The translations under genes and the position numbers were made by a program. From Chloroflexota bacterium (GTDB lineage Bacteria > Chloroflexota > UBA11872 > VXOZ01), in assembly GCA_965216245.1 (NCBI GenBank), contig OZ244145.1, positions 820,943 through 884,942 on the forward strand: a DNA stretch of 64,000 nucleotides. Direction: 5' to 3'. Below are positions 4,022 to 44,615 of the stretch, in pieces (the first letter of the stretch is position 1; every line of letters starts with the position of its first letter). The notes below the pieces were generated by a model that saw only the letters and a list, made by a program, of their open reading frames with translations, was not told the origin of the DNA and ran no database searches.

Positions 4022-5467
4022 CTACCAACCGCCCACAAGCTCCTGCCACTTCTCGATGATAATGTTCCACTCCTGTTCGACGTTTGCGAGACCTTCTTGA
4101 ATCGTGATGTTCCCCGCCATGACATCGGGCAGGAATCTACTCAACGACGTCCGCATCTCGTCAGCGCCGGGAATCGGCAGCGAATGCGACGCTCGGAACG
4201 GGATCTGATAGCTCTGGTGTTCGAGGAACGGATCACCCTCGGTGAAATCGGGCGAATTGGCGACGGAGAGTCGAATGGGCACGCGGTCCCAGGCCTTTGC
4301 CCAGCGAATGTTATTCTCCGGGCGTGACACGAACTCAATCCAAGCAAACGCCTCTTCGGGCACCGTCGTCCACGACGCCATGATCCAGATGTGATGACCG
4401 CTCCAACTCGCTTGGCGCACGGCGTTGGGCGGCTTCGGGTGCTCGATGATACTAAACCCGAAGTCCGGGTCAATTGGATAGATTTCCGCCTTGCGCGTGG
4501 AGTACGTTGCATACATTGAGGCGGTAAAGTCGTTGACAAGCGCAGCCCCACGCGGAGATCCAGAAGGACGAGCCGTCTTGTGCAGTGTAGCCAGCGCATC
4601 CCAGCCGCCCTGCATATCGTTTAGCTTCTTGACCCACGTCAGTGCCTCAACGGCTTCGGGGCTATTGATGGCCGCTTTGGTCAGGTCGTCACTGACCCGC
4701 TGGCCGCCGAGCTGTAAGAACGGCGTAATCCATTGGAACCGTCCGCCGCTGCCCCATTCGGGCGGGAAGCCCGCTACCACTACATTGCCAGCAGAATCTT
4801 TCCGCAGGGTCTTCTGAATGACCGATTCAAGCTCATCCCACGTTGCAGGACCATTTTCCGGGTCCAATCCATTTTCCAGAAAGATGCTATTGTGCATATA
4901 GATAACGCGCAGATCCGGGCCGTAAGGAAAGCCATAGAGCTGACCGTCTTTGCTCCAGACCATATTCTCGGTCAGGCTATCCCAAATGTCCTCCATATCG
5001 ATGTTGGAGCTCTTGACGAGGTCATTCAAACCGCGCGCCTGGCCGAGCGCACCGTGCTCAATGGCGTGCCACTCGCCCCAGGAACTAATGTCGTGAGGAG
5101 TGTTGGCAGCGAACGCCGTTCTGAATGCGGCATAGCGTTCGCCTGAATTACTGGACGGCGGATTGACATCAAAGTCGATATCGGGATGCTCTGCGCGAAA
5201 CTCCGCCACAAGCTCCGCAGATACACCCTCTTCATCCTGGAACTTGAAGTACGGATGCGTTGCAAACAGCACGTATACGGACTCTTTTTCGGGGGCAGCA
5301 GCCTCTGCTTGCGGTGCTTCCGCTTGCTCTTCTGTAGCCGCGGTCTGAACAGGCACGGCACCGCAAGCTGCAAGTGCGAGGACACCTAATGCGCCTCCTG
5401 AACCTACCAGAACGTTGCGGCGTGAAATTCGCTTTGCGTGAAAATCCATTGGTCTGCCTTTCTCCAC
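4022..5467 (-). CDS. ABC transporter extracellular solute-binding protein, family 1 (carbohydrate-type). It is a Tat-signal lipoprotein (SRRNVLVGSGGALGVLALAAC). An alternative start is MDFHAKR at 5449.
   Basis: RR motif followed by a lipobox Cys. A Glu/Ala/Pro-rich linker is followed by a periplasmic-binding-protein type fold. It is paralogous to 13056-14432 (shared DPENGPATWDE block). Confidence 0.75.
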   Translation of the reverse strand: MEKGRPMDFHAKRISRRNVLVGSGGALGVLALAACGAVPVQTAATEEQAEAPQAEAAAPEKESVYVLFATHPYFKFQDEEGVSAELVAEFRAEHPDIDFDVNPPSSNSGERYAAFRTAFAANTPHDISSWGEWHAIEHGALGQARGLNDLVKSSNIDMEDIWDSLTENMVWSKDGQLYGFPYGPDLRVIYMHNSIFLENGLDPENGPATWDELESVIQKTLRKDSAGNVVVAGFPPEWGSGGRFQWITPFLQLGGQRVSDDLTKAAINSPEAVEALTWVKKLNDMQGGWDALATLHKTARPSGSPRGAALVNDFTASMYATYSTRKAEIYPIDPDFGFSIIEHPKPPNAVRQASWSGHHIWIMASWTTVPEEAFAWIEFVSRPENNIRWAKAWDRVPIRLSVANSPDFTEGDPFLEHQSYQIPFRASHSLPIPGADEMRTSLSRFLPDVMAGNITIQEGLANVEQEWNIIIEKWQELVGGW

Positions 5468-5741
5468 ACTTCTACTTAGCTTTCCGGTCGCACAAACGCG
5501 CTACCTTGAGCGCTTTGCGCAGCCGCTCTTAGCCATCCATCGGCAAAAAGAACTTACGCGCCCGTACCTCCTTTCCGCTTAATTCGACAGTCCACTTTCG
5601 CCTGAGAGTAGCGGCCGTCGGCGGTATTCGGCTTGCTTAAGTTTTCGTTATTCTGCGCTGAGTCCGAACGGCGTCGCCCAAGGATTCTCTGCTCGATATC
5701 CTGCCAGGTGTTGGATTTCCAAACCGATCGCAGGGCAGTTG

Positions 5742-6518
5742 CTAGAGAATCTGCGACAAGAAACGGCGCACCCGCTCGTGGCGCGGATTATTGAAGAACT
5801 CAGCAGGCGGCAGGTCTTCGACGATCTGGCCTTCGTCGAACATAACGATGCGGTCGGCCACTTCGCGGGCAAAACCCAACTCGTGGGTGATAGCCACGAT
5901 GGTCATCTGCTGTGAAGAAGCCAGTTCTTTCATTACTTCCAGCACTTCCTTGATCATCTCCGGGTCCAGAGCCGACGTGGGCTCGTCGAAGAGCATGATC
6001 TTGGGTTGCATCGCCAGCGCACGGGCGATAGCGACACGCTGCTGCTGACCGCCCGAGAGTTCGCCTGGATATTTGTCAGCCTGTTCCGGTATGCCCACAC
6101 GCTCCAGGAGCTCCCGCGCACTGTTCTCCGCATCGGCCAAGGGCGTTTTGCGCACCTTGGTTGGAGCCAGCGTGATGTTACGCAGTACCGTTAGATGGGG
6201 AAAGAGGTTGAACGATTGGAACACCATGCCTACCTCTCGGCGAATGGCGTCTATGTTGCGCACATCATCGGTCATCTCGACCCCATCAACGATGATATCG
6301 CCGCGCTGATGTTGCTCCAAGCGGTTGATGGCGCGGATAAACGTAGACTTACCCGAGCCGGAGGGGCCGATAACCACCACCACCTCGCTGCGGCGCACAG
6401 AGGTGGTGACGCCACGCAGGGCATGGAAGTCACCGAACCACTTGTGTACGTCACGGGCCACTATGATGTTGTCTGCTTCAGGAGCCTGTTCCGACGCTAC
6501 TGCTGCTTCTGCTGCCAC
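5742..6518 (-). CDS. Polar amino-acid ABC transporter ATP-binding protein (AapP/GlnQ-like).
   Basis: Walker A GPSGSGKST, signature LSGGQQQRVAIARAL and Walker B MLFDEPTSALD. Confidence 0.85.
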   Translation of the reverse strand: MAAEAAVASEQAPEADNIIVARDVHKWFGDFHALRGVTTSVRRSEVVVVIGPSGSGKSTFIRAINRLEQHQRGDIIVDGVEMTDDVRNIDAIRREVGMVFQSFNLFPHLTVLRNITLAPTKVRKTPLADAENSARELLERVGIPEQADKYPGELSGGQQQRVAIARALAMQPKIMLFDEPTSALDPEMIKEVLEVMKELASSQQMTIVAITHELGFAREVADRIVMFDEGQIVEDLPPAEFFNNPRHERVRRFLSQIL

Positions 6519-6589
6519 GTTAACCTCCGAGTGTTTCGACGCCCCATCGCAACCCTTGCGTGGGACTCATCCTTTGAAATCACTACGCA

Positions 6590-7879
6590 TTACCGTTGGC
6601 CAACGCCAAGATGCCGTTCCACCCGACGACTGACAAATGACATTGTGTACGTAAAGATCCAGAACACCACCGCCACGAATATGAAGAGCTCCCGTGCGTT
6701 GTCCGCGAATTGGACGTTGCCCTGCACGATGGAGCGTCCCATCTCCAAAATATCCAGCATGCCGACAATGTAAACCAGACTCGTGTCCTTGAACAGCGAA
6801 ATGAACTGCCCCACGATTGCGGGTATCACATTGCGGATAGCCTGAGGCAATTGTATCAGCATGGTGACCTGCCAGCCCGGCAGACCCAGGGCACGTGCCG
6901 CCTCGGCTTGACCCGGATGCAGTCCCTGCAGTCCCCCACGAATATTCTCGGCCGTGTACGCCGCCGAGAAGAGCGTAATCACAATAGCCGCCCGCGTCAC
7001 GGAGTCGACGGGAAAGTTCGACGGCAAGGCGAGCGGTACCAGCACTTGCGACATGAAAAGCAGCGTAATCAGCGGTACGCCGCGAAAAACCTCGATGAAT
7101 ACCACGCAGAGAACCTTGACCACCGGCAGATTGCTCCGCCGTCCGAGCGCCAGCAGCACACCAATTGGAAAAGCAAAGAAGATACCCGATACTGCCAGAA
7201 TCAGGTTGAGCATCAGGCCGCCCCACTTACGCGGCGCCACCTCTTCCATGCCGGGAAAACCCGGTAATCCGTTGAGCAACAGTAGCAGGAACACGTAGAT
7301 CGCAATGCCGCCGAGCACGAACGTGCGTGGTTGCCCGGTTCTAGGATGGCTACCCAAGCCGTAGCCTAGGCCGATGGTCAACACGTTAGCCAGAATAAGA
7401 GCACGCACCCACCAGGGCATTACCACGCCCTCGTGGAAGAGGCCGTAGGGCAGCACTCCTAGCAACACCGTAACGACGCTATAGCCGATGGCAATGCGCC
7501 GGGCAGCTCCACCCCACATGGCGGCAGCCATGCCGAAGAGGATTGAGACCAGCAGCCAACCTACTAACGGCCGCCATGCGAGTTCTGTTGGGTACAGGCC
7601 GATGAGATACTGTTGCGGTCGGCTCGCGATGAGCGTCCAGTCAGCGGTGCCGAAAACCCAGCGTATAATGCTCCAGATCAACCATAGGAGCATCGGTACA
7701 GTGACCACGGTCACAATGCCGCTAAGCCAGTTGCCAAATAAGTTGGTCCTAGCCCAACCAATCCAACCTGTTTCTGTGAGTGGCGGAGGCAGTGAGGGCG
7801 CCGGTTGCCACGATTCCGCAGTAGCCATAAAGCAGCTAGCCTTAATTGAACTGGATGTGCCGGTTATAAAGATTGCCAA
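6590..7879 (-). CDS. Amino-acid ABC transporter permease (AapM/BztC-like large permease). The likely true start is the internal Met at about 7828, which removes the 38-bp overlap.
   Basis: Multiple TM segments and the EAA loop motif GQAEAARALGLPGWQVTMLIQLPQAIRNVIP. Confidence 0.8.
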   Translation of the reverse strand: MAIFITGTSSSIKASCFMATAESWQPAPSLPPPLTETGWIGWARTNLFGNWLSGIVTVVTVPMLLWLIWSIIRWVFGTADWTLIASRPQQYLIGLYPTELAWRPLVGWLLVSILFGMAAAMWGGAARRIAIGYSVVTVLLGVLPYGLFHEGVVMPWWVRALILANVLTIGLGYGLGSHPRTGQPRTFVLGGIAIYVFLLLLLNGLPGFPGMEEVAPRKWGGLMLNLILAVSGIFFAFPIGVLLALGRRSNLPVVKVLCVVFIEVFRGVPLITLLFMSQVLVPLALPSNFPVDSVTRAAIVITLFSAAYTAENIRGGLQGLHPGQAEAARALGLPGWQVTMLIQLPQAIRNVIPAIVGQFISLFKDTSLVYIVGMLDILEMGRSIVQGNVQFADNARELFIFVAVVFWIFTYTMSFVSRRVERHLGVGQR

Positions 7880-9038
7880 TCAGGGAGTATGTGAGACTGA
7901 AAAGCAAGTAAACGCCCATGATAATGAGAAATATGGTAACCGCTGGGGCCGTCTGAGTCATGGTCTTAGCCACACTGGTCAAGTCCGCGTAGCCGATGGC
8001 CAAAGCCAGACTACTGTTCTTAGTTAAGTTTAGGTACTGACTGATAAGAGGCGGGACGATGACACGCAGCGCCTGTGGGAAAGTAACGAAGCGCAACGTC
8101 TGCATGGTACCCAAGCCCAAAGAGCGGGATGCCTCGCTCTGTCCCCGCAATACGGATTGCAACCCACCGCGCACTATCTCGGCAATAAAGGCTGAGGTAT
8201 AGATGATCAATCCTAGCAACAACGCTGTCAGTTCGATAGATACGGCGTAGCCGCCTACCGGATGACCGAAGCGACCCTCCGGATGCGGGACACTCATGAT
8301 GAACGGGGCATCACCAATGATCACCCACACCACCCACGCAATCAAAGAACCCACTAACGCCACGCCAATCGCCCCCAACCAGGGATAGGACGAGCGGCCG
8401 GTTCGCAGTTCGCGCCGATCCAGATACAGGTGTGCGACGAACCCCAACGCGATAGCCGCTACAACGCATAGAAGCCACAACCCCGGCCGCTGTTGACCCT
8501 CAGGCCATGGAAACGACAACCCCGCGTTATTGTTCAGGTAGACAGCATCAAACCAGACAAATCCACCCTGTTGTACCGATGGCAGTCCCAGCAGCAAGAT
8601 GTACCAGAAGAAGAGTTGCACTAACAGGGGAACATTGCGAAAGATCTCCACGTAAACAGTAGCTACTTTGCTAATCACCCAGTTGCCGGAAAGCTGTACC
8701 GCGCCCACGATGATGCCTAGAGTAGTAGCGAGTATCACACCCACTATAGACACCATCAGCGTGTTGGTGGCGGCTACGAGGAAGGCATAGCCAAAGCTAT
8801 CGCTCTCTTCGTAGGGCAGCAGGTGTTCACTTATAGGCGTGGAGTACTCTCGGTTCAGAAACGACCAGCCGAAGGGAATGTCTCGTTGATCCATCGCAGA
8901 CGCAATGTTGGAGATGAAGAACGCCACAGCCGCCACCACAAGGATCCCCGACACGATCTGCGTGGTCCAGCTAAGGATACGAGAGTGTCGCCAAAGAGGA
9001 ATTCCCTGGTACGTTAGCGAAAGTCGCATTTCGTGCAA
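7842..9038 (-). CDS. Amino-acid ABC transporter permease (AapQ/BztB-like).
   Basis: EAA loop GQSEASRSLGLGTMQTLRFVTFPQALRVIVPP and polytopic membrane topology. Confidence 0.8.
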   Translation of the reverse strand: MHEMRLSLTYQGIPLWRHSRILSWTTQIVSGILVVAAVAFFISNIASAMDQRDIPFGWSFLNREYSTPISEHLLPYEESDSFGYAFLVAATNTLMVSIVGVILATTLGIIVGAVQLSGNWVISKVATVYVEIFRNVPLLVQLFFWYILLLGLPSVQQGGFVWFDAVYLNNNAGLSFPWPEGQQRPGLWLLCVVAAIALGFVAHLYLDRRELRTGRSSYPWLGAIGVALVGSLIAWVVWVIIGDAPFIMSVPHPEGRFGHPVGGYAVSIELTALLLGLIIYTSAFIAEIVRGGLQSVLRGQSEASRSLGLGTMQTLRFVTFPQALRVIVPPLISQYLNLTKNSSLALAIGYADLTSVAKTMTQTAPAVTIFLIIMGVYLLFSLTYSLIGNLYNRHIQFN

Positions 9039-9101
9039 CTCCTAGCAATTCTGCCGCGTCATTACGGGCGACGGTTCTCCAAGTGACCCGACGCCCTTTG
9101 G

Positions 9102-10238
9102 CTAGCGCAGTGGCGCCGCATATATCTGACCGCCCTTGGGGCAGTCCGAGCACGGGGCATTCGACCACAACGCGTTGCGGGATCCTTCCCGCGGTAGATC
9201 GATGTCTGTCTCCGGACCCAAGTTCCGCGCATAGATCTCGCCGTAGTTCCCAACCATCTTGATTACGGTCTGCCCTACGATTTTATCGAGGCCCAATTCA
9301 TCTTGCCCGAACGAACCCTCTGTGCCAAGCAAGCGCTTTGCCTTCACGTTGTCCCCAACGGCCATCTCGTCAACGTTGGTCGAGTTGATACCGTACGCCT
9401 CGGCGTAAATCAAGATGCTCATTACCGTCTTTACAATGTCGAACCACTGCTCGTCGCCGTGAGGCACCAGCGGTCCCAGCGGCTCCTCGGAAATCGTCTC
9501 CGGCAGGATGACGTGTTCATCCGGATTAGTCAAAGAACTCCGCAGCGCCGTAAGCGCCGAGCGGTCGGTCGTGAACACTTCACAGGCGCCGCTCTTATAG
9601 GCCGCGAAGGCCACTTGCGCCTCTTCGAATGTCTTTGGATTATACTCCATATTGTTCTGGCGGAAGAAGTCGGCCATGTTCAGCTCAGAAGTGGTGCCGG
9701 TATTTACGCAGACCGCCGCGCCTGCCAACTCGTACGCGCTCGCCACTCCCAGGTTCCTAGGTACCATGAAGCCCTGGCCGTCATAGAACATCGTTTGCAC
9801 GAAATTTCCCCAAGCGGCGTCGCGGGACGTCGTCCACGTTGTCACGTACACGAGTAAATCCACTTCGCCCGACTGCATCACAGGCCCGCGCTCGGCAGCC
9901 GAAATCAGACGAATCTCAACGGCATCAGGATCACCTAACACGCCCGCAGCCACGGCCCGGCAGAGATCGATGTCAAAACCGACACTATTACCGGTTTCGT
10001 CCACGTAGCCAAACCCCGGCGTGTCGTTGAGGCTGGCACAGATGAGACGACCCCGAGCGCGCACTGCCTCAAGACGCGAGGTCTCAGCCTGCGCCACTAC
10101 AGCCTCGGTCTCAGGTTTTTCGGCAGAATTTTCCATCTCCGGCTCGGTAGTCGTGGCGCAGGCCGCGCTCAGCGCGAACATGAGCGCCATTCCCAAGACA
10201 GCCAAACACTTTCCCGTCTGATTCAAGCAAGTCCTCAT
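9102..10238 (-). CDS. General L-amino-acid ABC transporter substrate-binding lipoprotein (AapJ-like), copy 1.
   Basis: Signal peptide plus lipobox LSAAC. It has a family-3 SBP-like fold and shares most of its length with 10495-11622. Confidence 0.8.
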   Translation of the reverse strand: MRTCLNQTGKCLAVLGMALMFALSAACATTTEPEMENSAEKPETEAVVAQAETSRLEAVRARGRLICASLNDTPGFGYVDETGNSVGFDIDLCRAVAAGVLGDPDAVEIRLISAAERGPVMQSGEVDLLVYVTTWTTSRDAAWGNFVQTMFYDGQGFMVPRNLGVASAYELAGAAVCVNTGTTSELNMADFFRQNNMEYNPKTFEEAQVAFAAYKSGACEVFTTDRSALTALRSSLTNPDEHVILPETISEEPLGPLVPHGDEQWFDIVKTVMSILIYAEAYGINSTNVDEMAVGDNVKAKRLLGTEGSFGQDELGLDKIVGQTVIKMVGNYGEIYARNLGPETDIDLPREGSRNALWSNAPCSDCPKGGQIYAAPLR

Positions 10239-10439
10239 GGCATTCCCAGCCTCTTTGCTAAAGGCACCCTAAGACTCCACATCAATCAGAGCATACACCC
10301 ATTGCCGCAGCAGGGAAACCATTCGCAGTGCGGCACGCTGCGTAAGCTAGTCTATCTTGAACCTTGACCCAGCCCCTCATAACTACAGCGCAACACTGCT
10401 CCAGCATCCAGCAGCGCAGCGAGGTGGTAATACCAAAAG

Positions 10440-10475
10440 TCGCGTCGACCCGGAAGAGGTCCAGGCCGACGCGAC
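10440..10475. terminator. Hairpin GTCGCGTCG-N18-CGACGCGAC between the two aapJ paralogs.
   Basis: 9-bp stem read directly from the sequence. Confidence 0.35.
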
Positions 10476-10494
10476 GATTATCAGCGACTACGAA

Positions 10495-11622
10495 CTAGCG
10501 CAGCGGCGCAGCATAGATCTGTCCGCCCTTCGGGCAGTCAGTGCAAGGCGCATTCGACCACAGCGCATTGCGCGAACCCTCACGCGGCAGATTGACGTCC
10601 GTCTCCGGACCCAAGTTCCGCGCATAGATCTCGCCATAGTTGCCTACTGCCTTGATAACGTTCTGGCCCACTAGCTTATCAAGTCCCAACTGTTCTTGAC
10701 CAAATCCGCCTTCCGTGCCCAGCAAGCGCTTCGCCTTCACATTATCGCCAACGGCCATCGCGTCAACGTTGGTCGAGTTGATGCCGTAGGCTTCGCCGTA
10801 GATCAGGATGCTCATCACGGTCTTCACAATGTCGAACCACTGCTCGTCACCGTGGGGCACCACCGGTCCCAGCGGCTCCTCGGAAATCGTCTCCGGTAGA
10901 ATGATGTGTTCATCCGGATTAGGCAGAGCCGTCCTCAGCGCGGCAAGCTGCGAGCGGTCGTTAGTAAAGACTTCGCACGCGCCACTCTTGTAGGCTTCAA
11001 GCACCACGTCTGTATCTTCATAGACCTTCGGGTTGTACTCCAAGCCGTTCTGGCGGAAGTAGTCGGCCATGTTCAACTCGGTGGTCGTACCGCTGGTCAC
11101 ACAGACCGCGGCGCCAGCCAACTCAAGTGCGCTACTCACACCCAGGCTCTTCGGAACCATGAAGCCCTGGCCGTCGTAGAACATTGTCTGCGCGTAGTTA
11201 CCCCATGCAGCATCGCGCGAGGTCGTCCATGTGACGGTGCGTACGAGCAAGTCCACCTCGCCCGACTGGACGGTAGGTCCGCGCTCGGCAGCCGTAATCA
11301 AGCGGATTTCAAATGCATCCGGGTCGTTCAGCACGGCCGCTGCCACGGCGCGGCAAAGGTCGATGTCGAAGCCCACGCTATTGCCGGCCTCGTCTATGGA
11401 ACCGTAGCCCGGCACATCGTTGCGGCTAGCGCAAATGACGTGTCCCCGTTCCTTCACGGTTTCCAAGCGTGAAGTCTTAGCCGTTTCCACCACCACGGGC
11501 TTGGGTTCGCCATCTTTTTCCATCTCTCCCGAATCCGCCTCGTCATCACCGCACGCCACACTGAAAAGCAGCGCGAGCATGACGCCCAAAACGACCAGGA
11601 GCTTACAAAGATTTCTCATCAT
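10495..11622 (-). CDS. General L-amino-acid ABC transporter substrate-binding lipoprotein (AapJ-like), copy 2 (tandem paralog).
   Basis: Signal peptide plus lipobox FSVAC. Long near-identical blocks are shared with copy 1 (e.g. GNSVGFDIDLCRAVAA, LPETISEEPLGP). Confidence 0.8.
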   Translation of the reverse strand: MMRNLCKLLVVLGVMLALLFSVACGDDEADSGEMEKDGEPKPVVVETAKTSRLETVKERGHVICASRNDVPGYGSIDEAGNSVGFDIDLCRAVAAAVLNDPDAFEIRLITAAERGPTVQSGEVDLLVRTVTWTTSRDAAWGNYAQTMFYDGQGFMVPKSLGVSSALELAGAAVCVTSGTTTELNMADYFRQNGLEYNPKVYEDTDVVLEAYKSGACEVFTNDRSQLAALRTALPNPDEHIILPETISEEPLGPVVPHGDEQWFDIVKTVMSILIYGEAYGINSTNVDAMAVGDNVKAKRLLGTEGGFGQEQLGLDKLVGQNVIKAVGNYGEIYARNLGPETDVNLPREGSRNALWSNAPCTDCPKGGQIYAAPLR

Positions 11623-11849: not shown

Positions 11850-12791
11850 CTAACCAACCACCACGGACTGCTGCGCAAGCACACGTTCCGCTTCACGAGT
11901 TGAACGATCGTGGTATTCCACCCAATTCTCAAGACCGTACTCGCTCTTGATGCGTGACATCGGCCACGCGTCGTCGTTGGATTCCACCATGAATACGCCG
12001 TCGTCCCGTGTACCTATTATAGTTACCCTGTGCCCGAGATCCGTCTGCATCTGGCGAATCTGCTCGTATTGCATGTCGTAGTGGAAAACTTCAGCTTCAA
12101 GATCAACCGTACTGTGAGCCACGTGCACGCCCAAGCCACTGGCGGCAACCTCGTCTCCGAGTTTGTTGATAATGCGCGAGCGTCCGCCGCTCACCGAAGA
12201 GACGATGATGTAACTGTGCAGCCAGGCATACGCTCGCAACCGCAAGCCGCCGTCGCACATGCTTGGGAAGACTACAAGCTCGGCCCCTGCCGCGCCGAGC
12301 CGCGCCCACTCTTCCGGATAGTCAACGTCGAAGCAGATGAGCATTCCTACCCTGCCAAAATCCGTCTCGAAAACCGGCAATTCGGAATAGACTCCGGGAA
12401 CCGTCCCTGCCTCGAGCTCTCCCAGCGTAGGATGGACCTTGTCATATTGACCGACGATTTCGCCCTGACGATCAAAGAGGACGCTGGTATTGAGCCGCAC
12501 GTTACCGCGCACCTCACACATGCCGGCAACGACATACATGCCATGCTGACGGGCCTTTTCCGCATAGACGTCTGAGGTCGGACCGGGAATGGGCTCCCAT
12601 GCTTTCTCACGTTCCTCCGCGTCGCCCGACAGGCCCAAAATAGTGAATTCTTCCGGCAAGCACGCAAGATCAGCGCCCAAGCCTCCCATCCGATCCAGCA
12701 GTTCCGCCGCCAATTCGTGGTTCGCGGCAATCGAAGCGCGGCTACTCATGTGGCCGACGCACGCAGTGGCTACCAACGCTTTGCGCGGCAT
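11850..12791 (-). CDS. Carbon-nitrogen hydrolase family protein (nitrilase/amidase superfamily).
   Basis: CN-hydrolase layout with catalytic Glu, Lys and Cys. The Cys lies in the GMLICFD context. Confidence 0.75.
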   Translation of the reverse strand: MPRKALVATACVGHMSSRASIAANHELAAELLDRMGGLGADLACLPEEFTILGLSGDAEEREKAWEPIPGPTSDVYAEKARQHGMYVVAGMCEVRGNVRLNTSVLFDRQGEIVGQYDKVHPTLGELEAGTVPGVYSELPVFETDFGRVGMLICFDVDYPEEWARLGAAGAELVVFPSMCDGGLRLRAYAWLHSYIIVSSVSGGRSRIINKLGDEVAASGLGVHVAHSTVDLEAEVFHYDMQYEQIRQMQTDLGHRVTIIGTRDDGVFMVESNDDAWPMSRIKSEYGLENWVEYHDRSTREAERVLAQQSVVVG

Positions 12792-12962: not shown

Positions 12963-12996
12963 GGCTGCAGGGTCCACACAGTAGAGTCCTGCAGCC
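12963..12996. terminator. Hairpin GGCTGCAGG-N16-CCTGCAGCC downstream of the SBP gene at 13056.
   Basis: 9-bp stem read directly from the sequence. Confidence 0.35.
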
Positions 12997-23058: not shown

Positions 23059-23243
23059 CTGACACCTACAATTCCCGTGCAAACGGGAATCCATCTTCTC
23101 CGCACTGCGCACGTAGCCATTGGCGGAGGACAAGCCTCCGTGCTTCAGTTTCTTGCAATCAAATTCCGAAACGGAATTAGTAGACCTAGGCTTGAAGCCT
23201 TTGCGAGGCAGCGGTTCTTGTCATTTGCATATTGCCTTTTGGT

Positions 23244-35560: not shown

Positions 35561-35704
35561 CACGAAATTCCTGCGCAGAAGAGAAAATCTACAACGCACA
35601 CTAGCCTCCTTTTTAAACTGCGAATACAGAGAGTTGTGTATGATGATACGTAGTTGCATAGGGCAATTCTGTTGGCTGGACGACATTGACGAAAGGAGAA
35701 TTAC

Positions 35705-36436: not shown

Positions 36437-37179
36437 TGCAGATGTCTGAGTCGGTCGGCGTCACCGTATGGAACGAATTCCGCCACGAGAAGACAGACGA
36501 GCACATCAGGCGGGTATATCCCCGAGGTATTCACGGCGCCATAGCCGAATACCTAGAGCAACAACCGGGTCTATCGGCGCACACCGCGACCCTGGACGAA
36601 CCGGAGCACGGTCTGACAGAAGAGGTGCTCGCCGAGACCGACGTGCTCATCTGGTGGGGACATCAAGCGCACGGCGCCGTGGAAGATGCAATCGTGGACC
36701 GCGTGCATGCGCGCGTGCTGGACGGCATGGGGCTGATCTGCTTGCACTCCAGCCACTTCTCGAAAATCTTCAGGAAGCTCATGGGCACAACCTGCAACCT
36801 CAAGTGGCGCGAAATTGGCGAAAACGAGCGCCTTTGGGTCGTGGACCCCAGCCACCCCATTGCGGCGGGCGTGGGACAATACATCGACATTCCCCATGAA
36901 GAAATGTACGGCGAGTTCTTCGATATCCCTCAGCCGGATAGGCTGGTCTTCGTAAGCTGGTTTCCAGGTGGCGAGGTCTTCCGCAGCGGCTGCTGCTACC
37001 ACCGCGGCCGCGGCAAGGTATTCTATTTTCGTCCCGGACACGAGACTTTCCCCACGTTCTATCAAGCGGAAGTGCGCCAAGTGATCGAAAACGCCGTGCG
37101 CTGGGCAGCGCCCTCGGACGGTCCCGCTCCCGTATTCGGCAACGTGCAGCCGCTGGAAGAAGTGACCGTGCAGGAATGA
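36436..37179 (+). CDS. ThuA-like (trehalose-utilisation, class-I glutamine-amidotransferase-like fold) protein. Its start overlaps the crp stop (TAATG).
   Basis: Size, the VWNEFRHE N-terminus and the LIWWGH/ICLHS blocks are typical of PF06283. Confidence 0.6.
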
Positions 37180-37219
37180 CCGTTCGGTGGTATGAGGCTC
37201 GGTGCGTTTGAATACTAAA

Positions 37220-37247
37220 GTAGGGGCGGTTCGCGAACCGCCCCTAC
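37220..37247. terminator. Bidirectional terminator: perfect 14-bp inverted repeat GTAGGGGCGGTTCG/CGAACCGCCCCTAC, flanked by AAA and TTT.
   Basis: Read directly. It lies between the convergent ThuA (+) and SBP (-) genes. Confidence 0.7.
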
Positions 37248-37304
37248 TGTTTAACGTGTCAAAGCGAAAATTGCTCCTCACGCCGCATCCGTACAAACAC
37301 GCAC

Positions 37305-38777
37305 TTACTGGCGCAGCATTTCCTGCATTGCTACCGACACTTGCTGAGCCGCGTCAGCCACGCTACTCTCGCCACTCAAGATCGGCGTCATGAGATGCTG
37401 CTGGAACAAAGACTGCAAGTGAGGCGCAAGGAGAGGCGGCACGCCGCGACTATAGTCGAGGGCATTTGAGATTATCGTTGCATCTTCAATCGTCAAGCTC
37501 GGCCTCACCTGTTTGATGCGCTCGCCGGAGACGTTATACACCGGATAGCCGAAGAACGTAACGGGAAGCTGGGAGAGTTCCCGTGCCAGCACCACTGCCG
37601 CCTGCGCTGCTAGGCCGGTATCTTTTGCTTGCGTGCCCACGCCCAATCCCGCGACCGGCGATACCCACGTGGCCTGGCGCGTATCGACCGGCAGTGCGGC
37701 AGCGCGGATCTGTTCCGCGCCCAGTCCCTGTCCGCCGCCGGAACGTACGGCGGTCGCCAAGCGCGCCGTATCGCTGGGCTGTCCACCACCGCGGCCTTGG
37801 CCCGGCATTTGGTCGAACGAAACCACTTGCATGCCGTTGCGGTTCGAGCGCACGAAGGAAAAGGTGCCTGCGGGCGGATTCGGGGCAATTTGGTGAAACG
37901 TTATCATGTCGCGCCATAGCTCAATGCCCCTAATTGCCTCCGGTTCGGAGAGACGCACGGCACCATTCTCAGCACTGAAAACCTCACCGCCGTGACTCCA
38001 AATCAAGCTCAGCAGCATCGGCACAGAGGCATGCGCATACGTGCCCCACTGCGTTCCCGAATCGTCGGTATAGGTCAAGCGTTTTCCCGCTTCAATCATT
38101 TCGGTCCAGCTCCACGATTCGCTGGGCGCGGCAACACCGGCATTCGCAAAGAGATCGGTGTCATAAGTAAGCGTGTTGATGGAACTAGAAAGAGGCAACA
38201 CGAGAACTTGACCCTGCCACGTCACCGCCTCCAACGCGCCGGGGGCAAAAGCGGAGAGATCGATGCTGCCGTCTACACGAGTAGCCTGCTCGAAAGGCTC
38301 GATGATGCCCTCAGCGTAGAGCAGTGGGAGTTCGTTCATATTGCTGATCATCAAAATGTCTGGCAGCGGGTCGCCGCTTGCCAACTGTCCGCTTGCCGCC
38401 GCCTCGTTCAGCGTGTCGGCTATCGGACTGAAAGGGGTTGGCGTGGGCTCCGCGTTTGCGTTGGCTGTGCCGAAGAAAGCAGCAAAATTGAAGGCGGGCC
38501 CCGGCGGCACGACGGTTAGGTTCACCTCCACCCGGAAGCCAAGACTCTGATCGTTTATTTCATTTGCGGCGGTCTGGAGGCTGGCAAGGATGTTGCCGGC
38601 CTGTGCTGCTTGAAAATTGGCCCCTTCCCCTTGTGGGAGGAAAACCGCTACGTTAACCGTCTTGTCACCGGAATCACCGCCGACCAGGTCGCTAAAAAAA
38701 CCACAACCGGATGCGAGACTTGCCGCTAGCGGCACGCCCCCGATCAACCCTAGAAACGAACGACGCGTCATTCCCAT
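37305..38777 (-). CDS. ABC transporter family-1 solute-binding lipoprotein with Tat signal (MGMTRRSFLGLIGGVPLAASLASGCG). It is an orphan.
   Basis: RR motif plus lipobox, then a PBP-like alpha/beta domain. The start was chosen at the Met preceding the signal. Confidence 0.7.
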   Translation of the reverse strand: MGMTRRSFLGLIGGVPLAASLASGCGFFSDLVGGDSGDKTVNVAVFLPQGEGANFQAAQAGNILASLQTAANEINDQSLGFRVEVNLTVVPPGPAFNFAAFFGTANANAEPTPTPFSPIADTLNEAAASGQLASGDPLPDILMISNMNELPLLYAEGIIEPFEQATRVDGSIDLSAFAPGALEAVTWQGQVLVLPLSSSINTLTYDTDLFANAGVAAPSESWSWTEMIEAGKRLTYTDDSGTQWGTYAHASVPMLLSLIWSHGGEVFSAENGAVRLSEPEAIRGIELWRDMITFHQIAPNPPAGTFSFVRSNRNGMQVVSFDQMPGQGRGGGQPSDTARLATAVRSGGGQGLGAEQIRAAALPVDTRQATWVSPVAGLGVGTQAKDTGLAAQAAVVLARELSQLPVTFFGYPVYNVSGERIKQVRPSLTIEDATIISNALDYSRGVPPLLAPHLQSLFQQHLMTPILSGESSVADAAQQVSVAMQEMLRQ

Positions 38778-39432: not shown

Positions 39433-40416
39433 CTAAAGGGGCAGAGAGATATCTCCACCTTGCTCGGCCGATTGGAACGTCGCCACACACACTTCCAGGG
39501 CGCGGCGGCCGTCGTGGCCGTCGGGCATGGGCGGCGTGCCGTTGCGCGCAGAATCGTAGAAGGCGGCGAGTTGGTTGCGCATCCCCACACTGTGGCCTTC
39601 AACCTCGATTTCCTCGCGCTTGCCGTCGTGGGTCACTAAGAGCGGCCCGGAGTGCCTGCTGAGGTGAATTGCGCCCTTGGTGCCGGCAATGCCGAAGTTC
39701 GACGCCCCCGCCGGGTAGATCTGGCTGCTGTGCAGTGAACCAATGGCGCCATTCTCATAATTCAACGTCGTAATGAAGGTATCCTCGACGTCGGTATTGG
39801 CAAACGTGCCGAACGTGGCGTTACCGTGCACCGAAGCAACGGGACCGCCCATCCAGAGGAGTAAATCAAGTTCGTGCACGGACGACGACCACGTGCCGCC
39901 GACCGTCTCGCGCTTCAACCGCCACTCGCCGACGCCAAACGGGGGCCGTCCGCTCAATCGCGTCGACCACGCCAGCTTCAGATCACCGATGTCGCCGTTC
40001 TCCAATCGCTTATGCACTTCGACGTAGGTCGGCCAATACCGCATGACGAAGCCAAGCATGAGGGGCACGCCGTTCTTGTCTGTGGCTTCAATCATGGCAT
40101 CGCAATCGTCGAGTTTCAGCGCCATAGGCTTCTCGCAAAATACGGCAATGCCGGCGTTGGCCGCGTCGACGCAGATTTCCCGATGCGTCCACGTGGGTGT
40201 TACAACCAAGACGGCATCCAGTTTCTCGTCCAAGAGATCTCCGTGGTTTGTAAACGCCTTGACGCCAAGTTCATCGGCCACCGCTTGGGCGGACTCGATG
40301 TTCACGTCCACTACGCCGACCAACTCGATGCCTTCCATCTCATGCGAAATCTTCGCTTCGCTCGGCCCAAGGCCTCCACACCCGATTACACCGGTACGCA
40401 ACGTTTTCGCCATGGT
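39433..40416 (-). CDS. Gfo/Idh/MocA family NAD(P)-dependent oxidoreductase. The start is at MAKTLRTGVIGCG with a GGAGG RBS.
   Basis: N-terminal Rossmann GxIGxG and a C-terminal Gfo/Idh/MocA alpha/beta domain. Confidence 0.8.
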   Translation of the reverse strand, partial: TMAKTLRTGVIGCGGLGPSEAKISHEMEGIELVGVVDVNIESAQAVADELGVKAFTNHGDLLDEKLDAVLVVTPTWTHREICVDAANAGIAVFCEKPMALKLDDCDAMIEATDKNGVPLMLGFVMRYWPTYVEVHKRLENGDIGDLKLAWSTRLSGRPPFGVGEWRLKRETVGGTWSSSVHELDLLLWMGGPVASVHGNATFGTFANTDVEDTFITTLNYENGAIGSLHSSQIYPAGASNFGIAGTKGAIHLSRHSGPLLVTHDGKREEIEVEGHSVGMRNQLAAFYDSARNGTPPMPDGHDGRRALEVCVATFQSAEQGGDISLPL

Positions 40417-40615
40417 CGAACCCTCCTCATCGCTCACTAGTCTAAGACACATCCGTTTACATCACGCGGATTTGGACATCATGATAGCAGCTAGCTTGCC
40501 CGATGGGAACTGTGCGGCCGGGCGGGCGCTATCACAGCGTTGGAAGTGCCGCGCGCGTGCAAGTCTGGCTACAATAGAGCCATGGTTGTCTTGGTTATTC
40601 GCATAGGAGAACACA

Positions 40616-41659
40616 ATGGCGGAAAAGTTTCGCGTAGGCATAATCGGTTGCGGCTGGATGGGCAAGTCGCATGCGCAGGCATATGCCGAATTAGATGCCG
40701 TACAGATGGTAGCCGCCTCAGATACCCATCCCACGTCCCTGGCGGAGTTGCAGGAAGAGCACGGCATCCCTAACGGCTATGCCGACTATCACGACATGCT
40801 GGCTAAGGAAGACCTGGATATCGTCAGTGTCTGCTCCTGGCCGGGGCTGCACGCCCCCATGTCGATTGCCGCCGCCGAAGCCAAGGTGCCCGGTATTATC
40901 TGCGAGAAGCCGATGGCGCGCACGCTGGCCGAGGCCGACGCGATGATTGCCGCCGCCGAGCAGCACGGCTCCAAGCTCGTGATCGGACACCAAGGCCGCT
41001 TTCGCAAGCAGACGAACGCCATTCGCAGTCTCATCCAGGACGGCGCGATTGGGCGTGTGGAGATGCTGTACATCCAGCAAAACGGCGGCCTGACGAATAG
41101 TTCTATCCACAACGTGGACTATGCGCGCTTCATTCTCGGCGATCCCAAAGTGAACTGGGTGATGGGCTCGGTTGAACGCCGCACCGACCGCTATGAACGT
41201 GCGCAGCGCATCGAGGACCGCGCCCAAGCCCTCATCGGCTTTGCGGGCGGCGTGCGGGGCGTGTTGGAATCGGACATTGGTGACGACCGGCGGGTGCAAC
41301 CGTGTGTTGTCTATGGTTCCCATGGCAGCATCTTCCCCGTGAGCAACGGCCTACGGGTGCTGGACTCCAATGGGATCAGGGAGATTTCGTTCAATGAGCC
41401 AAACTCTCAGGCCCTTCAAGCGCAAGAGTTGATAGAGTGGATCCAGGGACGGCGCGAGCATCGTGGGCATGCATATAACGGCCGCCAGGCATTGGAAGTG
41501 CTGCTGGCGATATCCGCCTCAACATACACGCGCGGCATTGTCCATCTGCCGCTGGAAATCACGGATTACCCGCTGGGGCTTGCCGTAGAAGAGGGCGTAT
41601 TGCCGGTCGAACAACCCGGCGCCTACGACATCCGGGGCTATCTGGTGCGAAAAGACTGA
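40616..41659 (+). CDS. Gfo/Idh/MocA family oxidoreductase (divergent from 39433-40416).
   Basis: FRVGIIGCGWMGKSHA Rossmann motif and the EKP catalytic block (ICEKPMA). Confidence 0.8.
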   Translation: MAEKFRVGIIGCGWMGKSHAQAYAELDAVQMVAASDTHPTSLAELQEEHGIPNGYADYHDMLAKEDLDIVSVCSWPGLHAPMSIAAAEAKVPGIICEKPMARTLAEADAMIAAAEQHGSKLVIGHQGRFRKQTNAIRSLIQDGAIGRVEMLYIQQNGGLTNSSIHNVDYARFILGDPKVNWVMGSVERRTDRYERAQRIEDRAQALIGFAGGVRGVLESDIGDDRRVQPCVVYGSHGSIFPVSNGLRVLDSNGIREISFNEPNSQALQAQELIEWIQGRREHRGHAYNGRQALEVLLAISASTYTRGIVHLPLEITDYPLGLAVEEGVLPVEQPGAYDIRGYLVRKD

Positions 41660-41750: not shown

Positions 41751-41776
41751 CCGGTAGCGCAGGTTTGTAACCTGCG
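41751..41776 (+). repeat. 26-nt hairpin repeat CCGGTAGCGCAGGTTTGTAACCTGCG upstream of the dcyD-like gene.
   Basis: Same core. The loop is TTTGTAA. Confidence 0.55.
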
Positions 41777-41874
41777 GCTCTTGGCGGCACCTCAAAAAGA
41801 GGTATGAGACCACACACCTAGGCACAACTGCCCGGTCGTTCATGACCTTGGGCGCAAAACAAGGAGCAATCAAT

Positions 41875-42921
41875 ATGGCGGTACAGAGCGCGCAGATACT
41901 GTCGCAGGACGAGTTGGCGGCAAAACTGGCAGAGCAGCCTCGCGTTGAGCTAGGTACCTTTCCTACACCCCTAGACTCTTGTCCCCGGCTCTCCGAGGCC
42001 GTTGGCGGGCCGCCGATCTACATTAAGCGTGACGACCTCACGGGACTGGCCCTTGGAGGCAACAAGACGCGGAATTTAGAGTTTCAAATTGGGTCAGCGC
42101 TGGCGCAAGGCTGCGATAGCGTAGTCGCCGGCGCCGATACCCAGTCGAATCAATGCCGTCAGGCCGCTGCGGCCTGCGCCAAGGTGGGGCTGGACTGTTT
42201 CCTGGTGCTCTCCGGCGGTCTTCACACGGAGGTTCAGGGCAACCTCCTGCTCGACCACATCTTTGGGGCGGACGTTACCGTGCTTGAAGACGCGAACATC
42301 GATAATCTGCAGGAGCAAATCGACCCCATCGAGGCGAATTTGCGCGCCCAGGGACGGAACCCGTACCGGATTACGAGCAAGTATTCGGAACCGGCGCTGC
42401 GGGCAATGTGCGGCTACCTGAGTTGCGCTCTGGAGCTTTCTACACAGCTCCCGTCGCTCCCGCAACCGCCGAGCACTATCTTCATCACCTCCGGTTCCGG
42501 CACGACCCACGCGGGCTTCGCTGCCGGTATCAAGGTGCTGGGTCTGCCCATCAAGGTGATCGGCATCTCCATCAAGGAGCCCGCCGACGAACAGCGCGAA
42601 AACGTAGCGGCACGCTCGCAAACGCTCGCGAAAGAGCTCGACATCCCCTGCGGCCTCTCGGTTGACGAGGTGCACGTATCGGGTGACTTTATCGGTGAGA
42701 AGTACGGCGTAGCGACACAGGATGGTATGGCAGCGCTGCAGCTCACGGCCCAGCAAGAGGGTATTCTGCTCGATCCGGTCTACACCGGCAAGACGATGTC
42801 CGGTCTCATCAGTATGGCGCGCAGCGGCGCAGTCCCCGCCGATCAGCCGGTCATCATGGTGCACACCGGCGGCATTCCGGCACTCTTTGCCTACCACGAA
42901 GAACTGATAGCAGCGCTGTAA
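41875..42921 (+). CDS. PLP-dependent D-cysteine desulfhydrase / ACC deaminase family enzyme. The start is at MAVQSAQ with an AGGAG RBS.
   Basis: KRDDLTGLALGGNKTRNLEF motif containing the PLP lysine, and a Gly-rich TSGSGTTHAG loop. Confidence 0.75.
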   Translation: MAVQSAQILSQDELAAKLAEQPRVELGTFPTPLDSCPRLSEAVGGPPIYIKRDDLTGLALGGNKTRNLEFQIGSALAQGCDSVVAGADTQSNQCRQAAAACAKVGLDCFLVLSGGLHTEVQGNLLLDHIFGADVTVLEDANIDNLQEQIDPIEANLRAQGRNPYRITSKYSEPALRAMCGYLSCALELSTQLPSLPQPPSTIFITSGSGTTHAGFAAGIKVLGLPIKVIGISIKEPADEQRENVAARSQTLAKELDIPCGLSVDEVHVSGDFIGEKYGVATQDGMAALQLTAQQEGILLDPVYTGKTMSGLISMARSGAVPADQPVIMVHTGGIPALFAYHEELIAAL

Positions 42922-43202
42922 GCGGCGCGCATCCGGTTCTCAGGGGTAGCCTTTTGCTATCCACTTAATTAGACCCCTACTCCACGGGTCTATGATAGAG
43001 ACTCAATTTATGATTCTTCCTTCGCCGAACGAAATCGGGATTAAGCACCGATATTGCACTAGGATTGGTTCCTAGTATCTTGACTTTGCAGCCTTGTAGA
43101 TATAGCATCTAGACAGAGTTGCGGCCATAGCGTCTATCGAGAAGTTGGCGGATTGAGCACCGTCTCTTGCTGAAGGCGCGAGACAGAAGGAGATACTCCA
43201 AG

Positions 43203-44615
43203 ATGAATTTTACTCGTACACTGAAGGTCACGCGGCGCACGGCGCTCGCGGGCATGGGGGCAGGTGCCCTTGGCGCGGTGATTGCCGCTGCCTGCGGACA
43301 GGCGACCATGACGCCGGAGGAAGCGCCGAAGGCTGAGATGAAAGAGGAGGCGCCCAAGGCCGAGGCCACGGCAATGCCGGAGGTCGAAACTACGACAATT
43401 TCCATGATCTCGGCGGAGAAGCCCACCACCCGACCCGTACTGGAGCCGATCCTGGCCGACTTCACCGGGCAGATGCCGCACATTGCGGTAGACCTCGTGC
43501 CTTCCGGCGGCTGGGGCGAGGTGAGAACGAAGTTCTACGCGGCACAAGCGGCCGGCGACCCGATCAACATCATGGAGAATGGCTGGAGCGCAGTCCTGAC
43601 CACGTTTGAGACCGGCGTGACGATTGACCTCGCGCCTTTCTTTACGCGGGACAAGATTGACCCGGAGGCTACCTTTGCCGCGCCGGCGATTGGCATGTGG
43701 ACGGTTGAGGGTAAAATCCTCGGGATGCCGATCACCATGTCGGTGGATTCAATGGCCTATAACGTTGATCTCTTCGAGGCGAACGGTATCAATCCGCTGC
43801 CGGTGGACCTGAACGATACCGATTGGAATATGGAAACCTTCTTGGACTTGGCAACCAAGCTCACCAACGACGACCGCACGCAGTTCGGGCACGGCGGCGG
43901 CATTACCTGCTCCAACGGCGGCGGTATTGGCACCGGCACCTATTGGGGGGCGGGCCCGTGGGACTCGGCAGCCGGCCGCGCAACCATAGACACACCGGAG
44001 TTCATCGATGCCCTAGACTGGTGGCGCGATTTCGGCGACAGCCACCGCGTGACGCCAAACGCTGACGAGCGTGCAGGGGCCATGGGCGGCCAGAGCGGCA
44101 ACGTCTTCATGTCCGGCAAAGTGGCGATGCAGCTTACCTGCACCTCCTTCCGCGACGCGCCGTTCCGTTGGGCCATAGGGACAATGCCGTACTCCGGCGA
44201 GGGGCAGAGTCAATCGGGCCGCACGTGGACCCATCCGCTGCAGATGGCTGACGACGGAGTCGATCAAAACGATCGCTCGTGGGACCTCTTCAAGTGGCTC
44301 CTGCAACCGGAGAACGGCGGACGCTATCCGCCGTCCGCGGGCCATGTCGTCTCGCCGCTCCTCGATGACAATGCATCCACGCTCGCGCAGGAAGGCTACA
44401 AGGAGAGCCTGGGCGTCGATCCCAGAGCGTTCTTGCTCCATTCCCGCACCACGAAACCGGCCGGTTGGGGCCTCTGGACGTTTACCGAGTTCGGAGAAAT
44501 TTCCGGCGATCTCAATGCTCGTTACCGCGACGAGTTCAATGCCGGCACGCTCACGGCGGCGGAGTATTCACGCTGGGCCGCTGATCTCATCAATGCGACC
44601 CTTGGTGGTAAGTAG
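43203..44615 (+). CDS. ABC transporter family-1 solute-binding lipoprotein with Tat-type signal (TRRTALAGMGAGALGAVIAAAC). It is an orphan.
   Basis: RR motif plus lipobox, a PEEAPKAEMKEEAPKAEA linker and a PBP fold. Confidence 0.7.
   Translation: MNFTRTLKVTRRTALAGMGAGALGAVIAAACGQATMTPEEAPKAEMKEEAPKAEATAMPEVETTTISMISAEKPTTRPVLEPILADFTGQMPHIAVDLVPSGGWGEVRTKFYAAQAAGDPINIMENGWSAVLTTFETGVTIDLAPFFTRDKIDPEATFAAPAIGMWTVEGKILGMPITMSVDSMAYNVDLFEANGINPLPVDLNDTDWNMETFLDLATKLTNDDRTQFGHGGGITCSNGGGIGTGTYWGAGPWDSAAGRATIDTPEFIDALDWWRDFGDSHRVTPNADERAGAMGGQSGNVFMSGKVAMQLTCTSFRDAPFRWAIGTMPYSGEGQSQSGRTWTHPLQMADDGVDQNDRSWDLFKWLLQPENGGRYPPSAGHVVSPLLDDNASTLAQEGYKESLGVDPRAFLLHSRTTKPAGWGLWTFTEFGEISGDLNARYRDEFNAGTLTAAEYSRWAADLINATLGGK

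Follow-up and report, generated by a model that had tools for sequence, protein, structure and literature searches.

A 64,000-nucleotide stretch of DNA from a Chloroflexota bacterium (contig OZ244145.1 of assembly GCA_965216245.1; referred to at its full length as the window) encodes four solute-binding proteins (SBPs) of the type that serves CUT1 ATP-binding cassette (ABC) importers. The original prediction for this DNA had described them as lipoproteins without cognate translocator genes nearby. This was borne out: in the 64 kb, Pfam and hidden Markov models (HMMs) of CUT1 permeases detected neither CUT1 permeases nor ATPases of the MalK type. As judged from sequence comparison, the four proteins belong to a radiation of SBPs in Chloroflexota in which the SBP genes are parted from the permease and ATPase genes. 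Our analysis makes it fairly probable that many of these SBPs have in common one CUT1 translocator, or a few, whose genes lie at other sites of the genome.

All four open reading frames (ORFs) were found where they had been predicted. SBP1 (4022-5449), SBP2 (13056-14432), and SBP3 (37305-38777) are encoded on the minus strand, and SBP4 (43203-44615) is encoded on the plus strand. The proteins comprise 475, 458, 490, and 470 amino acids, respectively, when the most plausible ATG starts are assumed, in agreement with the lengths of independently called orthologues (475 amino acids for P0001, 492 for P0056, and 470 for P0057). For SBP1, the ATG at 5449 is the more likely start, rather than the GTG at 5467. 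Each of the four passed the Pfam gathering score of SBP_bac_8 and/or SBP_bac_1. SBP1 reached 98 bits with SBP_bac_8 and 68 bits with SBP_bac_1, and SBP4 reached 59.7 bits with SBP_bac_1. SBP3 passed with SBP_bac_8 alone (38 bits versus a gathering score of 27), and the match covered residues 145-310 only. The assignment to the CUT1 type was supported by a sequence search of the PDB, in which the top matches of all four were CUT1 binding proteins for oligosaccharides or glycerol 3-phosphate. SBP1 matched sugar and UgpB binding proteins, and the matches of SBP3 were confined to residues 130-300. Pairwise BLASTP identified SBP1 and SBP2 as paralogues with 33% identity; SBP3 and SBP4 shared 18-28% identity with the other SBPs in partial alignments only.

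Separation of SBP Genes from Translocator Genes

The Pfam scan took in essentially all large ORFs of the window, and the only binding-protein-dependent permeases that it revealed were an AapQ/M-like pair (6590-9038). The case that cognate permeases might lie just outside the window was not borne out for SBP1, which is closer to a window edge than any of the other three. On a 640-kb contig that carries a 99% identical SBP1 (P0001), no CUT1 permease or ATPase was found within 10 kb to the left of the gene, and this region encodes only enzymes, namely a DUF3604 protein, two GNAT acetyltransferases, a DUF3604-like protein, an aminotransferase, and an S-methyltransferase. The SBP nearest to the right edge is located 19 kb inside the window.

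A genome scan with one genome per species was performed with an alignment of the SBP1/SBP2 subfamily as the query and returned 80 loci of at most 21 kb each. All fetched DNA amounted to 93 loci and 1.72 Mb, and every ORF of at least 150 amino acids therein was searched with two permease HMMs. These were made from the MalF- and MalG-type permeases that adjoin the SBP homologue in non-Chloroflexota loci, and Pfam confirmed that two of the positive-control permeases are BPD_transp_1 proteins. The lineage was represented by 72 Chloroflexota loci (L001-L072, ~1.4 Mb) and the outgroup by 20 loci (L074-L093). A permease pair stood beside the SBP in 20/20 outgroup loci, many of which also encoded an ATPase of the MalK type that includes a TOBE domain. 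The 111 SBP ORFs in the Chloroflexota loci fell into 27 paralogue groups (at least 65% identity). None of these groups had a CUT1 permease within ~10 kb, whereas one was present in 10 of the 11 outgroup operons counted as independent (p = 3e-5 in a conservative Fisher test of 0/10 versus 10/11). Precomputed Pfam tables of L001-L005 and L094 agreed in showing no CUT1 translocator genes by the SBPs.

In the sponge/coral clade to which the window belongs, at least 11 paralogue groups were distinguished, comprising the four window SBPs together with paralogues from four further sites on the chromosome, of which two carry a pair of SBPs. The orphan arrangement was also evident from the Pfam gene tables of P0007, P0009, P0012, and P0013, the first of which (45% identity) resides on a circular genome of 3.55 Mb. 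More distant homologues with 23-28% identity (P0078, P0079, P0081, and P0087) are encoded in canonical SBP-permease-permease(-MalK) operons. Two further metagenome contigs carried the exact SBP2 protein in the same gene neighborhood. Orthologues of SBP3 (83-94% identity) occurred only within the lineage, and those of SBP4 (85-97% identity) were found on contigs of up to 650 kb. SBP1 orthologues from more than 14 genomes exhibited ratios of nonsynonymous to synonymous substitution (dN/dS) of 0.04-0.08 at dS values of up to 1.6 and are under purifying selection.

In L060, L064, L067, and L069, which are loci from metagenome-assembled genomes (MAGs) of soil and groundwater Chloroflexota, two to four CUT1 SBP genes are clustered within ~10 kb, likewise without a permease, showing that the orphan arrangement is not confined to the sponge/coral clade. 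A few copies appeared damaged. The SBP1 orthologue at L010 10001-11428 is apparently frame-disrupted; its ORF starts ~410 nucleotides late, and its apparent dN/dS is 0.55. Three variants of SBP3 (P0071, P0072, and P0074) are 97% identical to SBP3 over the first 278-322 residues and then diverge. These copies may be either pseudogenes or the result of long-read indel errors.

Cytoplasmic enzymes of catabolism recur downstream of the SBP paralogues. The SBP1 group is followed by three Amidohydro_2 genes and then DUF3604, and other groups are followed by an amine oxidase and then DUF3604, by PhyH (two groups), by a 2-hydroxyacid dehydrogenase and an enolase-superfamily protein, or by an unknown protein and then DUF3604. 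The commonest neighbor is the DUF3604 protein, which is large and lacks a signal peptide; in three paralogue groups (L003 14282-16372, L004 13516-15876, and L048 14130-16145), its gene lies downstream of that for the SBP, at a distance of one to four genes. Signal peptides were found on none of the enzymes adjoining SBPs, either in the window or in the paralogous loci.

The window, a metagenomic stretch from an uncultured organism, has a G+C content of 57-60% and contains no tRNA genes. Over 15.4 kb, it is ~95.5% identical at the nucleotide level to chromosome OZ253463.1 (3.63 Mb, complete, "MAG: Chloroflexota bacterium"). Among the close relatives are MAGs from Porites lutea, a coral (Plut_88905), as well as numerous long-read assemblies that are 3.35-3.63 Mb in size. 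By our own reading of isolate names such as SB0662_bin_44, further relatives are sponge MAGs. RecN sequences were at least 70% identical within this clade and dropped to at most 51% identity among MAGs labeled "Chloroflexota" or "Anaerolineae."

Export Signals and Fold of the Binding Proteins

A signal containing two arginines (RR) and a lipobox cysteine had been claimed for all four SBPs, and both could be read directly from the sequences. Each protein begins with a twin-arginine motif resembling [ST]-R-R-x-[FLIA]-L (SRRNVL in SBP1, SRRTIL in SBP2, TRRSFL in SBP3, and TRRTAL in SBP4), followed by a hydrophobic stretch at the end of which the lipobox cysteine is located (LAAC29, LGSC25, ASGC25, and AAAC31, respectively; the ASGC of SBP3 is less canonical). 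On this basis, dependence on twin-arginine translocation (Tat) and lipidation are predicted for the SBPs. Genes for TatA, TatC, Lgt, and Lsp are absent from the window. The linker rich in Glu, Ala, and Pro that had been ascribed to all of them was confirmed for three. It is Ala/Glu/Pro-rich and extends to about residue 53 in SBP1, and it consists of Glu/Ala/Pro/Gln in SBP2 and Glu/Ala/Pro/Lys in SBP4. SBP3 has a short Gly/Asp/Ser spacer instead.

RR and lipobox were found in 93 of 100 full-length Chloroflexota SBP ORFs and in 0/13 from the outgroup loci of the genome scan. The seven exceptions were mostly truncated at locus ends or over-extended ORFs. A library of 1.84 billion proteins yielded 770 representatives of the SBP1/SBP2 subfamily at E values of at most 1e-30, and nearly all of the ~40 closest representatives possess both features. 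So do P0078 and P0079, two of the homologues from canonical operons, implying that export as a Tat lipoprotein is not tied to the orphan state. The family-3 (AapJ-like) SBPs of the same window carry Sec-type lipoprotein signals. Thus, Tat use appears to be specific to one SBP family rather than general to the SBPs of the organism.

An AlphaFold2 model of SBP1 (mean predicted local distance difference test score, pLDDT, of 82.8) showed residues 1-53, i.e. signal and linker, to be disordered and ~420 residues to be folded. Foldseek aligned the model over ~420 columns to CUT1 SBPs with target-normalized template modeling (TM) scores of 0.77-0.85, the best PDB matches being 15-20% identical. According to the model, SBP1 has the standard two-lobed fold of a MalE/UgpB-like CUT1 binding protein. 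The SBPs had been regarded as larger than typical; this impression did not hold up, as the folded domain of SBP1 is of normal size for CUT1 and the excess is made up by signal and linker. The model of SBP3 was poor (pLDDT 59, shallow alignment), and its Foldseek matches to CUT1 SBPs over ~390-408 columns (TM ~0.6) lend weak support to a CUT1 fold. By its sequence, SBP3 is classified as a divergent CUT1-type SBP and the outlier of the four.

A Proposed Shared Translocator and Its Alternatives

According to the explanation that we favor, the SBPs would be functional uptake receptors, exported by Tat and lipid-anchored through the lipobox cysteine on the outer face of the cytoplasmic membrane, with a short flexible linker keeping the protein off the membrane. 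Each SBP would capture a different substrate. The loaded SBP would then dock, in a hub-and-spoke manner, on a CUT1 permease/ATPase complex, of which there would be one or a few, with genes at another place on the ~3.5-Mb chromosome, and the adjacent cytoplasmic enzymes would metabolize the imported compound. The adjacency of SBP and enzyme genes would reflect substrate-specific co-regulation. We infer both the docking on a shared translocator and the co-regulation with the neighbors.

Several points weigh against this explanation. The hub itself was not seen in the lineage DNA examined: CUT1 permease and MalK-type ATPase were absent from all 72 Chloroflexota loci, a sample that is highly redundant, centered on SBPs, and equivalent to ~4-5% of any one genome. 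If more than 10 SBPs that are mutually 20-45% identical had a single translocator in common, its promiscuity would be unusual for CUT1. Scans for promoter and terminator consensus sequences were overall no better than the shuffled expectation. Moreover, a study of sponge Chloroflexi reports carbohydrate ABC importers to be apparently missing in its SAR202 genomes and some transporters to be only partly annotated (PMC6306507); the relevance of either to this lineage is uncertain.

The missing hub and the SAR202 genomes would also fit a lineage devoid of any CUT1 translocator, in which the SBPs hold scarce substrates at the cell surface, feed a transporter of another class, or sense ligands. Co-option of the SBP scaffold for signaling is known (PMC8938411 and PMC11113362). 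We regard such a lineage as unlikely, because the sample covers so small a part of a genome and because the SBP genes lie directly upstream of genes for cytoplasmic catabolic enzymes, which argues for uptake. In addition, no membrane protein common to different paralogue groups was found; MMPL, NfeD, MFS, and ion-channel-like proteins each occurred in one syntenic block. Nor was a histidine kinase or a LacI/GntR-type regulator detected near the SBPs of the lineage, a weak negative, as phmmer was used with single query sequences. Slightly less probable again is that the clade keeps, under purifying selection, at least a dozen Tat-exported CUT1-type SBPs without a CUT1 translocator and that these act as surface traps or have a partner not known for this family, such as a transporter of another class (a secondary carrier, for example, or the PAAT-type Aap system). 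A more specific proposal is that SBP1, and perhaps SBP2, use the permease and ATPase of the adjacent Aap-like PAAT system across SBP family boundaries. SBP1 is encoded on the strand of aapP, 292 bp downstream of that gene; an inverted-repeat search revealed no hairpin in the intervening spacer and a strong one after SBP1, and the adjacency to Aap was conserved in 14/14 orthologous loci (L006-L019). This proposal is nevertheless improbable. The Aap operon already possesses two SBPs, both of family 3, no Aap system lies near the remaining paralogue groups of this SBP subfamily, SBP2 is missing at that position in most related genomes, and the aapP-SBP1 spacer is poorly conserved across relatives except for the ribosome-binding site and a purine-rich block. 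To our knowledge, docking of a CUT1-type SBP on a PAAT translocator is without precedent.

The original prediction had offered two readings, SBPs that share a distant permease and SBPs that act as substrate receptors or chaperones of the adjacent enzymes. For the second, the recurrent adjacency of SBP and enzyme genes is the only argument, and the topology of the proteins makes it scarcely credible: the SBPs carry signals for export and lipid anchoring, and the enzymes carry no signal peptide. It was therefore rejected, as the SBPs would be outside and the enzymes inside the membrane. Sharing is plausible and the likeliest explanation, and it fits the Cbc precedent described below. It is equally hard to accept that the SBPs are decaying remnants of operons or artefacts of assembly or annotation. 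The damaged copies (the L010 orthologue and the truncated SBP3 variants P0071, P0072, and P0074) would be in line with this, but the arrangement occurs in independent assemblies of more than 14 genomes, including many complete chromosomes, and signals as well as Pfam domains are intact. Decay or artefact was ruled out for the four genes of the window by a dN/dS of ~0.05 for the SBP1 orthologues and by the recurrence across separate assemblies.

The Chloroflexota of sponges and corals are abundant symbionts that are thought to process dissolved organic matter. If the hub-and-spoke explanation is true, their substrate range would be set by the number of SBP genes and not by complete transporter operons, and module-based annotation such as that of KEGG would score the importers as "incomplete" and undercount uptake capacity. 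Each pair of SBP and enzyme would form a compact unit, in which the SBP ligand would name the substrate of the DUF3604, Amidohydro_2, PhyH, or ceramidase-like neighbor. The system would also represent unusually large SBP sharing within CUT1 and offer a case for how one translocator recognizes many divergent SBPs. Should the genome prove to be without CUT1 translocators, the case would become far more interesting than a variant of a known arrangement.

Relation to Known Systems

Linkage to a permease is usual for CUT1 SBPs, but it does not define membership in the protein family. We regard the arrangement as a clade-wide variant of the known orphan-SBP arrangement, differing in scale and consistency. 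An established example is that of CaiX and BetX of Pseudomonas, which are orphan SBPs encoded in catabolic operons and use the Cbc (CbcWV) translocator, as summarized in PMC8938411. As in the Cbc system, the window SBPs are encoded among catabolic genes without permease or ATPase genes, and several SBPs are proposed to serve one core translocator. Cbc differs in that it belongs to another ABC family (for quaternary amines), has two extra SBPs, and has an identified core transporter, whereas here the proteins are of the CUT1 type, at least 11 paralogue groups occur per clade, every sampled member is an orphan, and a core translocator was not found in the sampled loci. The source studies on Cbc and orphan SBPs are reportedly those of Chen et al. 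2010 and Thomas 2010 ("Homes for the orphans"). MsBP of Synechococcus (Cyanorak CK_1342) is an orphan cluster-D/CUT1 SBP encoded away from the LacF/LacG-type permeases that are predicted as its partners (PMC8938411). Like the window SBPs, it is a conserved orphan CUT1-type SBP of a marine bacterium. Unlike them, it stands alone as an orphan among housekeeping genes (mreBCD) and is not one of a large paralogous set beside catabolic enzymes.

More than one SBP per translocator is also known from other importers. HisJ and ArgT share HisQMP, and LivJ and LivK share LivHMGF. Escherichia coli MppA works with OppBCDF and is encoded away from opp (PMC3173086). These examples differ from the window SBPs in that one or two extra SBPs are involved, the families are those for peptides and amino acids, and the primary SBP is still in the operon. 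The Aap system, with two SBPs for one translocator, is an instance of SBP sharing within the window. The "Bug" proteins of the tripartite tricarboxylate transporters (TTT) in Bordetella and Cupriavidus comprise tens of orphan SBP paralogues per genome with very few membrane components. They belong to a superfamily of secondary transporters, and their SBP family is unrelated to the CUT1-type SBPs found here.

Modularity within CUT1 is illustrated by MsiK, a shared CUT1 ATPase of Streptomyces. Likewise, MsmX of Bacillus subtilis is a shared and separately encoded CUT1 ATPase (PMC5730181). In both, one separately encoded component serves many systems; it is the ATPase that is unlinked there, SBP and permease genes being kept together, whereas it is the SBP that is unlinked here. 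With respect to export, lipoprotein SBPs translocated by Tat are found in Streptomyces. The same holds for SBPs of ABC importers in haloarchaea (PMC3387779). The combination of a twin-arginine signal and a lipobox on ABC-importer SBPs is common to these organisms and the window. Here it occurs in Chloroflexota and on CUT1 SBPs only, with Sec-type signals on the family-3 SBPs.

Genes Neighboring the Binding Proteins

Amidohydrolases, a CN-hydrolase, ThuA and Gfo/Idh/MocA proteins, and a ceramidase-like enzyme had been named as neighbors of the SBPs. Pfam agreed with these assignments, although the ceramidase match is weak. Downstream of SBP1, three tandem Amidohydro_2 genes (1296-2111, 2084-2884, and 3027-3836, minus strand) encode proteins without a signal peptide. 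They are followed by a DUF3604 gene (~1-1170, minus strand) that runs off the left window end; the gene order continues in L003. On the other side of SBP1 lies the Aap-like importer of the PAAT family (5742-11622, minus strand), which was identified by Pfam and scored above the cutoff of the NCBIfam model HEQRo_perm_3TM. It consists of two family-3 SBPs (10495-11622 and 9102-10238) that are 77% identical to each other and have Sec-type lipoprotein signals without RR, the AapQ/M-like permeases (7842-9038 and 6590-7879; BPD_transp_1), and the ATPase AapP (5742-6518), all encoded on the minus strand. A strong terminator-like hairpin of 16 bp (10439-10475) was observed between the two tandem family-3 SBP genes. 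The earlier statement that Aap has the only permeases in the window is correct for binding-protein-dependent permeases. It overlooked two ABC exporter half-transporters (48973-52766) and a permease of the TauE/SafE sulfite-exporter family (56797-57546, plus strand), which were recognized by Pfam and are not SBP-dependent.

Directly downstream of SBP2, a cytoplasmic CN_hydrolase of the nitrilase/amidase superfamily (11850-12791, minus strand) was identified with 98 bits by Pfam; its NCBIfam matches were all far under their cutoffs. SBP3 is convergent with a gene for a cytoplasmic ThuA-like protein (36436-37179, plus strand; Pfam ThuA, 121.7 bits), and a Gfo/Idh/MocA oxidoreductase without a Tat signal is encoded upstream on the same strand as SBP3 (39433-40452, minus strand). 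ThuA and a ThuB-like Gfo/Idh/MocA protein therefore flank SBP3 as in a locus of the thuEFGK-thuAB type, but the genes for the permeases ThuF and ThuG and for the ATPase ThuK are missing. A cytochrome P460-family domain was also noted at the C terminus of an over-extended ORF (35063-36046, minus strand). Its true start is probably the internal Met opening MLSVVLLGAMVLLAGC, which would give a Sec-type lipoprotein.

Upstream of SBP4 and on the same strand, Pfam identified a second Gfo/Idh/MocA oxidoreductase (40616-41659, plus strand) and a pyridoxal phosphate (PLP) enzyme (PALP) of the D-cysteine desulfhydrase/CuyA family (41842-42921, plus strand). The best NCBIfam score of the latter was that for the D-cysteate sulfo-lyase CuyA (314 bits, under the cutoff of 450). 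Together with the TauE/SafE gene 14 kb away, the CuyA-like enzyme gives a hint of organosulfonate catabolism. Downstream of SBP4 is the gene for a ceramidase-like protein of 489 amino acids (44960-46429, plus strand). It lacks a signal peptide and matched Ceramidase_alk, the N-terminal domain of neutral ceramidase, with 36 bits over residues 46-104 only.

With regard to the SBP ligands, no NCBIfam model came near its cutoff for the SBPs. The structural neighbors of SBP1, which are only 15-20% identical to it, range in their ligands from oligosaccharides to glycerophosphodiesters. The neighboring genes give no more than hints, which point to amide, nitrile, or methylated-amine chemistry in the case of SBP1 and SBP2 and to a 3-keto-sugar route of the ThuA/ThuB type in that of SBP3; for SBP4, they are the CuyA-like PLP lyase and the ceramidase-like protein. 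In the region 57543-61149, a GNAT acetyltransferase, an enolase-superfamily MR_MLE protein, a creatininase-family amidohydrolase, and a D-aminopeptidase (M55) are encoded, a set that is typical of marine Chloroflexota degrading dissolved organic matter and osmolytes.

Hairpins, Spacers, and Repeats

A hairpin is located downstream of each SBP gene. That after SBP1 (3977-4010, minus strand), found in the inverted-repeat search, has arms of 16 nucleotides, begins 12 nucleotides past the stop codon, and is probably a transcript end or an mRNA stabilizer. SBP2 is followed at ~60 nucleotides past its stop by a perfect 9-bp stem (12963-12996, minus strand) that is weak on its own. A GC-rich stem of 13 bp (37219-37248, minus strand) between the convergent SBP3 and ThuA genes was classified as terminator-like in the terminator scan, and a hairpin with arms of 17 nucleotides (44706-44739, plus strand) was present ~90 nucleotides past the stop of SBP4. 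In addition, each SBP gene of the window is flanked by a spacer of 185-655 bp. Hairpins and spacers together suggest that the SBP genes are separate transcription units or that the hairpins raise SBP mRNA levels. SBP1 is a possible exception to separate transcription at its 5' side. An Rfam search yielded no match.

The purine-rich block that is conserved in the aapP-SBP1 spacer, GAAAGGAGGTA[C/T]GG (5554-5575, minus strand), is positioned ~100 nucleotides upstream of the SBP1 start. In some relatives, but not in the window, it reads as the Shine-Dalgarno sequence and ATG of a tiny ORF.

A dispersed intergenic repeat was also noticed. It consists of a core, TGTCATTCCGAGCGCAGCG, followed by AGGAATCTA or TCGAACAGGGTTCGCGGAATCTA, and occurs in the window (2908-2926, 22858-22891, and 23236-23300), in L005 (3435-3519 and 4716-4831), and in many other loci of the lineage. 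The copies in L005 flank a transposase gene of the IS110 family. When the repeat core GTCATTCCGAGCGCAGCG was used as a probe of metagenome contigs, the 18-mer was detected in at least 120 soil, peat, and sediment loci unrelated to the lineage. Thus, the repeat is a widespread element resembling repetitive extragenic palindromic (REP) sequences or miniature inverted-repeat transposable elements (MITEs) rather than a marker of the lineage.

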